The notes beneath the pieces are model-generated. The model had not been told where the DNA came from, made no database searches, and was given only the letters and a program-made list of their open reading frames with translations. DNA of 57,759 nucleotides, the filler included, from Sphacelaria rigidula (lineage: Eukaryota): the NCBI GenBank assembly GCA_964200075.2. It is 9 parts of 9 records of this genome, joined end to end, with 100 filler letters (N's around TTAATTAATTAA, not from the genome) between each part and the next. Parts side by side here need not be neighbours in the genome. Positions count along the whole stretch, not along the records: positions 25,717 to 32,045 come from CAXNAA020020743.1; 8 more parts are not named here. One strand, written 5' to 3'. Shown one piece after another: positions 26,452-31,483 of the stretch. Made by a program: the position numbers and the translations under genes. The first letter of the stretch is position 1. Each line of letters starts with the position of its first letter.

Positions 26452-26594
26452 GTGGGACGTACGGGAGCCCTTACCCCCGTGGCCGTTCTGGAACCGGTGG
26501 TCGTTGGCGGCGCTACCGTTTCGCGGGCGACGCTTCATAACGCCGGCGAGATCGATGAATTAGGTGTTCGGCCGGGAGATCGTGTGAGGATACG
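26452..26594 (+). CDS. ligA: NAD+-dependent DNA ligase, OB-fold exon (gene partial in this contig)
   Basis: cag|[47 protein letters not shown](R)|gtaag. Canonical LigA VGRTG..TPVA and ATLHN motifs. Ends in phase 2. Confidence 0.96.
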
Positions 26595-26888
26595 GTAAGA
26601 TGTGGATAGGCGGTCACCTTCAAGTTGTTTTTGTTCTCATCAAAGGTGTGAACACTCCATCATGCAGATGTGTTTTTATTAGCAGATGAAGAGCTAATGG
26701 ACAAAACACTTTTTTTTTATTCCCTTTTTTTATTTTCATTTCCTTCTGTTTTTCTCTTCTTCTTTCAACTGTGTAAGAAAAACGTTTTATTTTCTTGATT
26801 TTTTTCAAAAAATAATGTTGTGAGAAAAAAATAGCCGTTGAAAAAGTCAATCACAACACAGCTCTGTGTGTGTGTGTGTGTGTTCCAG

Positions 26889-27033
26889 ACGAGCCGGAGA
26901 CGTGATTCCTCAGGTGCTAGGTCTTGTTGGCGGGCCGCGGACTGCCTCCGTGAACGCGAGCACTGACGATGCGGGAGCCTTCGTGTTTCCCGCTGCCTGC
27001 CCGGCCTGCGGCACTCCTGTTGTCAAGGAAGAA
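26889..27033 (+). CDS. ligA: NAD+-dependent DNA ligase, motif VI and first half of the C4 zinc finger
   Basis: ccag|(R)RAGDVIPQV...FVFPAACPACGTPVVKEE|gtgagt. Phases 2 and 0 fit the neighbouring exons. Confidence 0.96.
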
Positions 27034-27305
27034 GTGAGTCGGGGTCGGAGCTAATAAGCATTTTTTCGGAGCGGAGGGGGGGGTCTTGCTGTCATGGTGC
27101 GGGCGGGGAATTTGCAAATCTATGTGCTGTATCTACGATTTGTTTTGACTTTTCTGTACCAGAGTTCTCGATCCACTTTTTACGGTGAATTTACTTGCCG
27201 CGCATGTTCCGGTGTTTATATTTCCCCGTTTTTTTTGCTGCTTGCTGCGTTGGTGCATTTAAGGAAAATGACTCGAAACCTATCCTCGTGGCAAGACACG
27301 TCTGT

Positions 27306-27346
27306 ATACTGTACTGTACTGTACTGTACTGTACTGTACTGTACTG
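27306..27346. repeat. (GTACT)n microsatellite in a ligA intron
   Basis: Direct reading. Confidence 0.9.
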
Positions 27347-27394
27347 CAATTAGTTGAGACACCGCTGCGTGTACCCTGTTTTCTGCTCGGTCAG

Positions 27395-27510
27395 GACAAA
27401 GCAGCCACACTATGTCCCGCGGGCCTGAGCTGCCCGGCGCAGGCCGTGGAGCATCTAAAGCACTTTGTGTCCAGGGGCGCGTTCGACATTCAGGGTCTCG
27501 GAGCCGCCAA
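27395..27510 (+). CDS. ligA: NAD+-dependent DNA ligase, second half of zinc finger and first HhH
   Basis: tcag|[38 protein letters not shown](K)|gtgag. Phases 0 and 2. Absent from the ORF track. Confidence 0.96.
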
Positions 27511-28315
27511 GTGAGAGACACGGGGCAAGGTCTGATCTTGATTTGAGTATTATATACTATACGACACACAGTTATTGCTGCCTCAAGCAGTATGGGGTCG
27601 TTGGGATGTTCAGTGTTTGTTTTTCGGTGCTTGCTTGTTGGCCGTTGGTGTGCTTTTCGCGTTTGAGGTCTTCAGGGGCGATTTTTAGTGGCGGTGTGCC
27701 GTAGACTTTTACTTATGATACCCGTCACATTTTGTCACTTTCCAGTCGCATGTGCGGGTATCACTTGATTTATTTATTTCGTGATTATTTTTGTTAGTGT
27801 ATTTATTCATTTGTATTTTATCTTTCCCTTGTTCAAAAAGTAAAGCCAACCATCCATCCTCAACTATCCAACCATCCATCCTCAAACAATCTTTAATTAG
27901 TTAATTAATTCTGTCAAAAAGTATGTGACTAATTCATCATTCGATTGATTTTTTTTTCTTCATTTTTCCTTTTTTTCTTTCTGCTTCTTGTTTTTCTTTC
28001 ATATCTTTATTTTTTCATCGTAAGACTTCTATTGTAACCTTCTTCCCGTTCCTCGGGACGAGTCCGGTTAACTGCCAATAGATGAAATCGACGCATAGCT
28101 CCCCGCGGTACCCGCCTTTGCGAATCTGTCGTCGATCATTGATTGGATGATGACCAACCACTCCTAGATCCCGTCGATTTTATTCTGTTGTTACAACTGA
28201 CATTCTTACTCATTCCGGGACGGAAACCAGTGAACTGAAAACAATTGCTGTACTGTCGGGATCGGACACGCGATACTTCTACTCCCCCCAAAATGACCGA
28301 TGACGTACTGACCGT

Positions 28316-28729
28316 AAACAACATGTTAATGAGATTAGGAACGGATTTTTGTTTCGGAACGGGAGGTTTTTCGTGATTTACACCAGGGCGGTCGAATCGT
28401 GCGGAACGGCCATCCCCCCCCTGAAAGCCCGTGTGATCTGACGAGAACTTTGGTGCAAAAATATTTGAAATCGACGTGGTCAGTGCAGAGTTAGGAGGGA
28501 AAACGTGTCCGAGAAAAATAAAACTGAAAATTGAGCATTTTCGGCCGTATCTCATGGAGGGCACACTAATCACCGATTTCAAATCTGATTTCGCCAAAAT
28601 CCCCGTCAGATCACGGGCTTTCATGGGGGTGACAGCCGTTTCGAACGATTCGACCGTCTTGGTGTACAACATAAAAAATCTCCCGTTCCGAAAAAAAAAT
28701 CGTTCCTAATCTCTCGAACATGTTGTTTG
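28316..28729. mobile_element. Foldback/palindromic element in a ligA intron (weaker symmetry may reach ~28140-28900)
   Basis: Inverted arms of ~170 bp: AAACAACATGTT..GAGATTAGGAACG..TTTCGGAACGGGAG..CGGTCGAATCGT..GAAAGCCCGTG..ATCTGACG..ATTTGAAATCG. Confidence 0.85.
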
Positions 28730-29957
28730 TGCCACTTTGAACACCGGGGCGAGGCAGACCTTGGGAAGGTTGAGTTCCCGCAAGCGTTGGTCGAGGACTC
28801 ACCACTTTTTCGCATTGATGGCAATGAGAGACGAGTTCAGTTGCTGACAGTAGGGACGACAAAATCCTCAAAGTTCTCATCCCGGCCCGATCACCTCTTC
28901 AATCCTCCTCTCGTATCCAAAACACATGAAATCTCTCGTAAAGGGAGGGGGGGGGGCGTACTCATTTGTTGCTTGCCTTAGTCGTTTGACCATTGACCAC
29001 GCATCCCTTTCGAGACGGAGCATGGAGCGTAAAGGGAGGGGGGTGATGCGGGATACTGACTTTCCTATAAAAGGGTTAAATTTCCACAGGTGTTTCTGTC
29101 GAGGATCCATCACCTTTTTTACGCATGGATATATGATATATATATATACGGTGTATATATACTTCGAAGTATATATTTAATCAAAATGACGTTGCGGTTG
29201 TGTATCGCTGCTGACATTATATCCTATCGTATGGATAGTTGGCATCGATATCGCCAAGCTGCCGTTACCGGCTGTATCCGCCTCGAGTACTCGTACTCGC
29301 ATAGCTCTTGCAAGGCTGTCGCACGAGAGAAAACAGCGCTTCTACTTTGAATACTGTAGTCTCATTCTTGTGATTATATTCAAAGCAATTTTTGACAAAA
29401 GAAAAAGCCGACCCGGTTCTCTTCATATTCCATTTATTTTCCTATTTCATCTTATAAAATTTACGTTTTTTGTCATAGTCCATCTTATTATCTCATTTTC
29501 TATTTTCAAATTCCATGTTTCATTGTCATACTCCACATCGAGTACAAACATATTAAGTGTGGCAAACCGTTGCTGCTAGTGTCCACACACGTCCCCTCAC
29601 CCGGCGAATGCGATCATCGGGGTTCTCGGGGTCAAACATGAGATGAAATGATGAGTATAGTGTTGAACTTGTTGCCCACTTTATCACGTGGGACCGTTCA
29701 TCTGTCGACGGATGGGCTCCTTCCTCATTTTCTCCTCATGTAGACGGCTGACCACTCGAGATACTTGTCCCGACGAAGCAAATGTGTACTCGTGGTGTAG
29801 ACGCGAACAAATGGAAGAAAAATAATACAGACACATGATGACGATGCTTGGTTTTGCTTTCCTCTCTCGATTTTGTTCTTCCCTTTTCTGTACTGAGCAT
29901 CTCTATTTTACTGCGTGATTCGAATTATATTGTTTTTGGATCCTTTTCTCAACCCTT

Positions 29958-30250
29958 TTGGGACCGACCCCCCACCAACACAAGGTTGACCCTGTGTCAG
30001 TGAAATAATTAAAAATAAGTCTTCGAGCGACCTGCCCAGTGACGGCGAGGCGAGATTTATCGACCAGACCCGAACGACCAGCGCGGGGATTGTTGGCGAG
30101 TGTGATGCCACTGCGAAGATCGTGTGAGCACACTATCCCCGGCCCAGATAAGCCTTCCCAGGTTTCCAAGTGCAGGGCGGTCGGAACTTGGTTATGTGAT
30201 ATTAGTTGCACTCAGTACAGCTTTCCCGAGTTTTCCGATGTTTTTTTTTT
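29958..30250 (+). repeat. Dispersed repeat family X
   Basis: Matches 12859-13118. Confidence 0.85.
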
Positions 30251-30669
30251 GCGGTAACCATGATGGTGGTCGAGCTAGATCATACTGTGCGGGGTGGGGG
30301 TACCTCAATTCCGCGCAAAGGGGACGATCATACTATGTTATGGTTGAATGGTAAGACACCCATGAAGCAATGTGTAATCCGTGGCCGTCTCTGGAAGTGG
30401 TGATACCAGAAAATGAAGCAACTCATTGAAGGCTGTCATCCATGTGCAAGAGAATCAGTATGCTTCGGCCCAAACAATCTTAGCAGGATGCAGCTCACCC
30501 ACCATGCGACTCGCCGAAGACATCACAGCGCTCGCGCTTGGTGATTGGTTGCGAGCCTACAGGGGTTCGGCGAAAACCCGGCGTGCTCCGTCCCGGCTTT
30601 GCAGGGATGCGAGGTCTTCGGTCATATGACTACGACATGCAAGATGATGAGTATACTCCCCCCCCCCCG
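30251..30669 (+). repeat. Dispersed repeat family Y (~420 bp, ends in a C-run). Other copies at 36210-36566 (-), 38575-38699 (-) and 25717-25778 (+)
   Basis: Shared blocks such as GGCGAAAACCCGGCGTGCTCCGTCCCGGCTT, CCATGATGGT.GTCGAGCTAGATCAT and ATGACTA.G.CATGCAAGAT. Confidence 0.85.
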
Positions 30670-31015
30670 CCCGCCCGCCGCCACGCCCCCCTTTTTTCAG
30701 GGTCTGTCCTAAACACGCCGACACCGCTTTGCTTGCTTGTATAGTCGACGATTCCTCTGTCTTTTCCATGGACGATGCAAAAGTTCGGCACAACAAGCAG
30801 ATGACGCTGCGAGTACGAGATGGAGACGTGCGGCCGAGCACTCGCCTTCGAAGCTCGCCATCACCCTTCAACAAGCAACAGTAAAACATGGAAAGGACAG
30901 GACTACCCTACATGAGCAACCTGACGGACAAGCTTGATCGTCATCATACTCCCCTGTACTTTCTTCGGCGCGTCTGTCGCCGTGTCTTTGCTTCCATCTC
31001 TCGCCCTGTTCTCAG

Positions 31016-31483
31016 GTTGAGCGAGCTCTACGACGCGGGCGTCGTCCGTACTCCAGTCGACATCCTGCGTCTGAAATCCCGCACCAGCATTCTCCCTCCT
31101 CCCGAAACAACCCCACACGCCTCCGATAACGGACAGGGGGACACGGGGACACAGGATACTCCTCCCCGATTAAGCACTAACGCCTCCGTCCCGCACAAGT
31201 GTAATGATGTCGAGGGAGTCAGCAGCGCGATCTTGGGGGCGGCGATGTCGTCAAAGGGAGGCGCGAACGTCCATGAAGGTGGGGCGGTGGAGGATGACGA
31301 CGGTTATGCGGAAGCGGGATCAAGCGGTGATGGGGGTGAGGTGAAGAAGAAGGGGAAAGGGAAAAAGAGAAAGGCCGTCATCGTTCCGGAGTCTACGTTG
31401 GAAGGACGGGGTGGCTGGGGGCGGCTGTCGGCCAAGAATGTGTTTGATGCCGTGGAGAAATCGAAGGATATTACCTTGGGAAG
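31016..31483 (+). CDS. ligA: NAD+-dependent DNA ligase, HhH region with ~100-aa low-complexity insertion
   Basis: ctcag|(K)LSELYDAGVVRTPVDILRLK-[insert]-LEGRGGWGRLSAKNVFDAVEKSKDITLG(R)|gtgag. 468 bp, phases 2 and 2. Confidence 0.92.

Follow-up and report, generated by a model that had tools for sequence, protein, structure and literature searches.

Four internal exons point to a nuclear gene for a bacterial-type, NAD+-dependent DNA ligase in the brown alga Sphacelaria rigidula

Bacterial DNA ligases that depend on nicotinamide adenine dinucleotide (NAD+), known as LigA, act through the lysine of a KxDG motif, which takes adenosine monophosphate (AMP) from NAD+ with the help of domain Ia; the AMP then moves to the 5′ phosphate of a nick, which is sealed while the OB fold, the zinc finger and the helix-hairpin-helix (HhH) motifs encircle the DNA. 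Here we examine a stretch of DNA from the brown alga Sphacelaria rigidula (assembly GCA_964200075.2) in which positions 26452 to 31483 had been predicted, from the sequence alone, to encode a LigA split by introns. The stretch is 57,759 nucleotides (57.8 kb) long, filler included, and consists of nine parts joined end to end; we refer to the whole of it as the window. We find it likely that the window holds four consecutive internal exons of a nuclear, spliceosomal-intron-bearing gene for a LigA-type ligase of alphaproteobacterial-type lineage, and that the product works in an organelle.

NAD-dependent ligases are ‘primarily found in bacteria’, in the words of one ligase review. Outside bacteria, they are reported from nucleocytoplasmic large DNA viruses (NCLDV), namely mimiviruses, entomopoxviruses and some iridoviruses (Yutin and Koonin 2009, PMC2806865); those viral ligases belong to the same family, but were grouped in that paper with gammaproteobacterial and phage ligases, whereas the algal clade described below falls on the alphaproteobacterial side. 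In Paulinella, nuclear ligA copies are described as carrying chromatophore and mitochondrial transit peptides (PMC7826189, PMC9450145), so that there, too, a LigA-type ligase is nuclear-encoded, and is destined for organelles that contain DNA. In passages on the enzymes of organellar replication, two reviews mention only ATP-dependent ligases of the LIG1 type and describe the plastid ligase of plants as unclear (PMC4166229, PMC3914683). Our literature search, which had most subscription journals and supplements outside its reach, turned up nothing published on LigA in brown algae or in other stramenopiles. Nonetheless, the LigA family itself is textbook material and eukaryotic nuclear copies are already present, unremarked, in public proteomes; the protein A0A836CB54 of the alga Tribonema carries the UniProt name ‘DNA ligase (NAD(+))’.

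The exons and introns of the S. rigidula gene are as follows, with residue numbers given for the 1304-residue orthologue of Cladosiphon okamuranus (P0004).

26452–26594, plus strand: exon A, with acceptor cacccag/GTGGGA and donor GATACG/gtaaga, entered in phase 0 and left with 2 nt over; OB fold (Pfam positions 9–58 of 79), 91.8% identical to P0004 residues 759–807.
26595–26888, plus strand: intron 1, 294 nt, GC content 0.33, its 3′ end formed by a (TG)n run and ttccag.
26889–27033, plus strand: exon B, with acceptor gttccag/ACGAGC and donor GAAGAA/gtgagt; end of the OB fold with RAGDVIP (26890–26910), a variable linker, and zinc cysteines 1 and 2 as CPAC (26998–27009).
27034–27394, plus strand: intron 2, 361 nt, which interrupts the zinc finger and carries a (TACTG)n microsatellite at 27306–27345.
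27395–27510, plus strand: exon C, with acceptor cggtcag/GACAAA and donor CGCCAA/gtgaga; zinc cysteines 3 and 4 (27413 and 27431) and the first HhH motif, FDIQGLG (27482–27502).
27511–31015, plus strand: intron 3, 3505 nt, with dispersed repeats that have further copies in the window.
31016–31483, plus strand: exon D, with acceptor gttctcag/GTTGAG and donor GGGAAG/gtgagc, stopping after two bases of an Arg codon; last part of the first HhH pair, an insert, then GWG..SAKN..LG of the next HhH.

Spliced in silico, the four exons give 872 nt, or 290 codons, with zero stops, and their phases are compatible (0 to 2, 2 to 0, 0 to 2 and 2 to 2 for exons A to D). All eight splice sites are canonical, with AG/GT borders, as determined both by eye and by script; the coordinates obtained in this way are those of the original prediction. 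The exons have a GC content of 0.59–0.64, the introns one of 0.33–0.47. The claim that the introns carry host repeats is likewise borne out, as self-BLAST finds repeats in intron 3 at 28941–29027, at 30011–30240 (90% identical to 12880–13108) and at 30310–30663 (79% identical, inverted, to 36210–36562). GT-AG introns, fitting phases and host repeats within the introns are, at the level of sequence, the marks of a spliceosomal nuclear gene. Together with the long terminal repeat (LTR) elements that flank the block and orthologues in at least five brown-algal species, the introns uphold the view of an integrated eukaryotic gene rather than contamination. The (TG)n run of intron 1 (26866–26883) stands directly 5′ of the exon B acceptor. 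No RNA was found among the sequencing runs that match the stretch (11 runs listed, 9 with all or part of it). The block begins at an acceptor and ends at a donor, 2 nt into a codon, and is therefore not a self-contained gene; it accounts for about 22% of the protein (residues 759–1046 of the 1304 in P0004).

The matches of these exons to LigA are, as judged by sequence comparison, far beyond chance. When 138 plus-strand frames from 19.3 to 33.6 kb were scanned with Pfam models, two of them, the frames of exons A and B, matched LigA models. DNA_ligase_OB (PF03120) matched the exon A frame with E 2.9e-21 (75.6 bits, against a cut-off of 32.9), as expected of the OB fold of LigA, and the tail of the fold (positions 55–75) was found on exon B (E 0.05). 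DNA_ligase_ZBD (PF03119) matched the exon B frame with E 0.0012, at 19.1 bits and under its cut-off, because intron 2 splits the finger; all four cysteines of the Cys4 zinc finger (C707, C710, C725 and C731 of our alignment) are kept, at 26998, 27007, 27413 and 27431. A profile hidden Markov model of 700 positions, built from 16 LigAs and run on 2,260 six-frame segments of the whole window, matched the frames of exons A–D only (E 2e-23 to 4e-10; next best E 5.3), at positions 343–530, of which exon D supplies 472–530. In tblastn, P0004 gave four colinear matches to its residues 759–1046 (E 1.2e-21, 6.9e-11, 2.9e-16 and 1.0e-20 for exons A to D), and the Choristocarpus tenellus orthologue (P0008) matched exon D with E 5.3e-14. 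Exon C also matches LigA chains of known structure (8ak4, 4glx, 2owo and 5tt5; E 2.6e-6 to 7.6e-6), aligning to residues 422–455 of Escherichia coli LigA (2owo) with E 7.5e-6. Exon D alone found no match among PDB sequences at E ≤1, and its homology therefore depends on the algal orthologues. Thus, of the LigA motifs originally read from the exons, the OB fold, RAGDVIP and the C4 zinc finger are all located, but the HhH domain is there only in its first part (profile positions 433–530 of 700).

The order of OB fold, RAGDVIP, Cys4 zinc finger and HhH in the window is that of bacterial LigA, as represented by the E. coli enzyme (2owo). The algal gene differs from its bacterial counterparts in being nuclear and split by introns, in carrying a HhH insert of about 100 residues, and, in the orthologues, in an N-terminal extension of 190–270 residues; it also differs in that the window shows no catalytic part. 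The insert, at about 31077–31409 of exon D, is of low complexity and lineage-specific, and includes the basic cluster KKKGKGKKRK at 31344–31373.

The best matches of exon A are from Laminaria digitata, Ectocarpus sp., Scytosiphon promiscuus, Choristocarpus tenellus and the EukProt set of Cladosiphon okamuranus, at 84–92% identity, and all five named sources are Phaeophyceae in the NCBI taxonomy. Three Logan proteins match at 88–94%; bacteria follow, at ≤83%, and no match is identical to the window. An alveolate apicoplast ligase, our initial guess, was dropped, as the best matches of exon A are brown-algal. Two orthologues are full-length, P0004 and the 1147-residue P0008, each with the N-terminal extension. 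Both contain DNA_ligase_aden (E 2e-65 in P0004 and 1.9e-74 in P0008), the OB and zinc-binding domains, and BRCT (E 1e-11 and 3.8e-10, respectively); P0008 additionally has HHH_2 and an Nlig-Ia match (E 1e-4; 23.3 bits, under the 27-bit cut-off). In a 16-row alignment, the KxDG columns K351, D353 and G354 are invariant, as are the columns Y219, D229, Y232 and D233 of the Ia domain, which binds nicotinamide mononucleotide and confers specificity for NAD+. The brown-algal and other PX-clade models (Cladosiphon EP00903 P007072, Choristocarpus, Scytosiphon, and A0A836CB54 of Tribonema minus) are orthologues in one clade, with an insert at the same site. At core columns, the window fragment is 80% identical to the Cladosiphon, 72% to the Choristocarpus and 82% to the Scytosiphon protein. 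The brown-algal models are whole, or longer than the window fragment, which has only the residues matching 759–1046 of the Cladosiphon protein, and the sequence of the insert has diverged (37% identity between fragment and Cladosiphon). Searches of metagenome contigs gave no relative among 595 pattern matches with P0004 as the query, and no brown-algal sequence among 80 loci with the exon A frame, all of which were ≤79% identical and bacterial-looking.

Conservation of the fragment equals that of the full-length brown-algal orthologues, in so far as alignment columns can tell. Of the 41 columns within its span at which the 16-row alignment shows no variation, the fragment keeps 40; measured against 23 bacterial LigAs, it keeps 35 of 36 invariant and 52 of 58 near-invariant columns, compared to 36 of 36 and 50–53 of 58 for three brown-algal orthologues. 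Tribonema and Amorphochlora keep 32 and 29, respectively, of the same 36 columns. Exon D, with 468 nt that include the fast-evolving insert, is still open. This pattern is consistent with purifying selection on the fragment, and would fit a recent death as well.

To place the gene among LigAs, we used the Choristocarpus protein as a phmmer query against 1.84 billion representatives, obtaining 34,840 matches at E ≤0.001. Eukaryotes among the longer matches were Tribonema minus (Xanthophyceae), Phaeothamnion confervicola, the chlorarachniophyte Amorphochlora amoebiformis and Paulinella micropora. Among the 120 best matches of a word search, 11 rows bear a bacterial organism name, and all 11 are alphaproteobacterial, some of them by way of genera that we take to belong to this class. 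A scan for genome loci with two peptide patterns is biased, and of its best 80 among at least 599 confirmed loci, 62 are labelled Alphaproteobacteria, 8 Gammaproteobacteria and 2 Betaproteobacteria.

Three trees were made from these sequences. A FastTree of 258 rows (the window fragment, 7 named eukaryotes, 145 other proteins, 79 genome loci and 26 of 80 viral loci, with two genome loci left out for open reading frames of <550 residues) joined the fragment to Cladosiphon and Scytosiphon (support 99), then to Choristocarpus (99), then to Phaeothamnion and Tribonema (99). In a quick IQ-TREE run of 64 rows, the PX clade (99) was joined to Amorphochlora and to three proteins from public contigs, P0244, P0311 and P0381 (96). 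The third and most careful IQ-TREE run had 46 rows, the LG+C20+F+G4 model with posterior mean site frequencies (PMSF) and 1000 ultrafast bootstraps. It recovered the brown algae (100/100), the PX clade with Tribonema and Phaeothamnion (100/99), and a eukaryote clade of nine rows (99/100) composed of the PX group, Amorphochlora, P0244, P0311 and P0381. A branch of length 0.46, supported at 100/100, splits 14 rows from the other 32, among which are all 20 named alphaproteobacteria and every eukaryote; the smaller group consists of 7 gammaproteobacterial, 1 betaproteobacterial, 1 unclassed pseudomonadotal, 1 acidobacterial, 1 myxococcal and 1 unclassified row and 2 viral contigs. The 18 rows dropped from the 64 were the viral L090, L096 and L102, the proteins P0247, P0251, P0255 and P0256, and eleven loci (L002, L010, L016, L020, L024, L025, L026, L037, L040, L055 and L059). 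Three of these loci, L024, L026 and L037, have non-alphaproteobacterial labels and stood inside the alphaproteobacterial clade of the 64-row tree, and dropping them makes the alphaproteobacterial side look cleaner than it is. Their bins are labelled Flavobacteriales, beta proteobacterium and Acidimicrobiia, and the position of their LigAs suggests mis-binned contigs or transfers.

These trees support, with limits, the placement of the brown-algal gene within an alphaproteobacterial-type LigA lineage common to PX-clade stramenopiles and a chlorarachniophyte. Backbone supports on the alphaproteobacterial side are 36–59 in the 46-row tree, and the eukaryote clade is nested in no sampled alphaproteobacterial order; the alphaproteobacterial affinity that had been proposed thus holds for the type of LigA, given the 100/100 split and the 11 named bacterial rows, but not for any specific donor or order. 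Grouping with cyanobacteria or viruses had been named in advance as evidence against such an origin; the lists of nearest matches address cyanobacteria indirectly, and the sampled viral-contig ligases stay outside the algal clade (26 rows in the 258-row, 5 in the 64-row and 2 in the 46-row tree). Judged on these contigs, which are without names, the algal gene does not belong to an NCLDV LigA clade. The one Paulinella micropora protein sampled (P0325) lies apart from the brown-algal clade, among alphaproteobacterial rows, which points to a separate acquisition in Paulinella. The proteins P0244, P0311 and P0381 have an AT-rich-looking composition; we call them eukaryote-like on the grounds of their N-terminal extensions and of inserts, rich in lysine or asparagine, that occupy the HhH site seen in the algae, and they probably come from protists.

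The four exons would encode the DNA-clamping middle of the ligase, that is, about four-fifths of the OB fold, the Cys4 zinc finger, the first HhH pair and the start of the next, with the lysine-rich, lineage-specific insert of about 100 residues set into the HhH region. Exons for Ia and adenylation (KxDG) would lie upstream and those for the remaining HhH and BRCT downstream, outside the window, past introns that repeats and LTR retrotransposons have enlarged, or would fall in a gap of the assembly. If it resembles the full-length orthologues and bacterial LigA, the algal protein would seal nicks in an NAD+-dependent manner. The insert may act as a patch that binds DNA, or as a nuclear signal.

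With respect to where the protein works, the N-termini of the orthologues give a hint. Seven proteins of the eukaryote clade have N-termini, with 60–270 extra residues before the Ia motif, and their first 60 residues contain 8–10 Arg plus Lys and 0–3 Asp plus Glu. A hydrophobic 11-mer with a mean Kyte-Doolittle (KD) value of ≥2.0 lies near the start in four of the seven, and Tribonema reaches 1.99. Basic leaders are the form taken by organelle leaders, and in algae with complex plastids a signal-peptide-like start points to the plastid. Because the orthologues carry basic N-terminal extensions, often with a signal-peptide-like hydrophobic stretch, an organelle, either plastid or mitochondrion, is most likely the workplace of the predicted protein. 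More tentatively, the eukaryote-only, alphaproteobacterial-type lineage may be the plastid replication and repair ligase of algae with complex plastids (PX-clade ochrophytes and chlorarachniophytes), moved between algae by transfer and endowed with the clamp insert; we regard this as possible, and somewhat doubtful.

The remainder of the gene was sought throughout the window. The original prediction had proposed that the KxDG motif and the BRCT domain be confirmed; neither is in the window, and both are seen only in orthologues. The flanks of the exon block, about 26 kb on each side, consist of repeats and LTR retrotransposons, and their main features are the following.

6696–11778, minus strand: Copia-like LTR remnant with RVT_2, rve and Pol_BBD, and open reading frames at about 6.7–10 kb.
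19867–24612, minus strand: Gypsy-like LTR retrotransposon; 1.8 kb separate it from exon A, and it would sit within the intron upstream of that exon.
45457–48878, minus strand: Gypsy-like remnant with zf-CCHC, RVT_1, RT_RNaseH and integrase.

The element at 19867–24612 has an LTR pair (19867–20122 and 24358–24612, 92% identical) and matches Chromo, Integrase_H2C2 and zf-CCHC on the minus strand; the Copia-like remnant has a 261-bp repeat pair (7278–7538 and 11518–11778, 95% identical). A tandem satellite with a 103-bp unit occupies 423–4469, with about 30 copies at 423–3491 and shorter runs to 4469; its copies match at 73–78%, with a higher-order period of 309 bp. Downstream of the block, 32972–35143 on the minus strand holds contiguous open frames of 464 and 258 codons with one stop between them. 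Their product would have five Myb/SANT-like repeats (W..G[YH][IV].G.RDW ... F..M) and an acidic tail; the frames have no Pfam match, and only two homologues, at 40–50% identity, appeared among 8,000 scored candidates. They may represent a neighbouring gene, or one that lies within an intron. A run of 10 N at 36200–36209, which follows exon D at a distance of 4.7 kb, has the look of a gap in the assembly. Sixteen runs of 44 N, in eight pairs at a fixed spacing of 6,429 bases, look like masking rather than biology; each pair hides 88 bases, and the pairs closest to the exon block lie about 0.75 kb before it and 0.56 kb after it.

A number of observations weigh against a live gene with an organellar product and an alphaproteobacterial-type ancestry. 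No match to the adenylation (KxDG, PF01653), HHH_2 (PF12826) or BRCT models was found in the 138 plus-strand frames, none to profile positions 1–342 (Ia and adenylation) in the 2,260 six-frame segments, and none to the later HhH and BRCT positions in the same segments. Nor did a permissive tblastn (E up to 200), for which the queries were the N- and C-terminal portions of three orthologues, find anything outside the exons better than E 0.17, which is noise. A live gene would thus need introns of >26 kb on each side, or the loss of its missing domains in the gap at 36200–36209. The minus-strand frame at 32972–35143, 722 codons in total and unrelated to LigA, lies only 1.5 kb downstream of exon D. 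The fragment departs from an invariant column once, with Leu replacing the Arg that precedes the third zinc cysteine. As to the organelle, the N-termini are those of automatic gene models of other species, and those of Choristocarpus and P0381 have no hydrophobic stretch at the mean KD cut-off of 2.0. As to ancestry, the rows of the trees are nearest matches and include no named cyanobacterium, Firmicute or named giant virus, and in the 64-row tree, with three more long viral branches, the relation of alphaproteobacteria, gammaproteobacteria and eukaryotes is an unresolved fork.

Several of these observations would be expected if the exons were a dead relic, a piece of LigA stranded as a partial duplicate or broken off by rearrangement or transposons, with any working copy elsewhere. 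Such a relic would explain why 57.8 kb hold only profile positions 343–530, between transposon-rich flanks and next to an open reading frame on the opposite strand, and why an Arg that is invariant elsewhere has become Leu. We consider it unlikely, since eight canonical splice sites with fitting phases, the lack of any stop or frameshift in 290 codons that include the fast-evolving insert, and invariant columns kept as well as in the full-length orthologues all argue for a gene under use, or for one that died very recently. Contamination by bacterial DNA or an inserted giant-virus gene, of phaeovirus-like kind, is a far less credible source. Bacteria and certain large DNA viruses are the typical holders of LigA (PMC2806865), but the intron structure contradicts such a source, with three spliceosomal introns that carry host repeats and a step in GC content at exon borders; the table of the same paper lists two phaeoviruses without a ligase entry, and no sampled viral-contig ligase groups with the algal clade.

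A live nuclear gene of this kind could still serve the nucleus or cytosol rather than an organelle, as an extra repair ligase like others that eukaryotes have acquired horizontally. The basic cluster of the insert has counterparts in Cladosiphon, Tribonema and P0381, where similar lysine runs occupy the equivalent position; these might serve as a nuclear localisation signal, and the horizontally acquired ligase of a rotifer is reported to aid tolerance of DNA damage (PMC10665377). We think this role improbable given N-terminal extensions that are basic and nearly acid-free, with a signal-peptide-like stretch in four of seven and Tribonema just under the cut-off, and given the organelle transit peptides of the Paulinella copies. 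About as improbable, in our judgement, is direct descent of the gene from the mitochondrial endosymbiont, as opposed to later transfer from an alphaproteobacterium or between algae. The eukaryote clade does lie on the alphaproteobacterial side of a 100/100 branch without nesting in a sampled order, as such descent would have it; however, the named holders form a short and scattered list (PX-clade stramenopiles, one chlorarachniophyte and the separately branching Paulinella), so that many losses would be required, and the clade has no specific tie to Rickettsiales across a backbone of low support.

Thus, the reading that we favour remains that of internal exons from a nuclear LigA-type gene whose product probably acts in an organelle. 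The window adds one more species to the holders of this gene, with only the non-catalytic middle of it, and what makes the finding of interest is a clade confined to eukaryotes whose members may work in organelles. Brown algae and their relatives would be a lineage-wide exception to the rule that eukaryotes use ATP ligases. The ligase that seals nicks in the organelles of algae is poorly known, and a conserved, nuclear-encoded LigA of the NAD+-dependent type, as predicted from these sequences, may be a concrete candidate for that enzyme.

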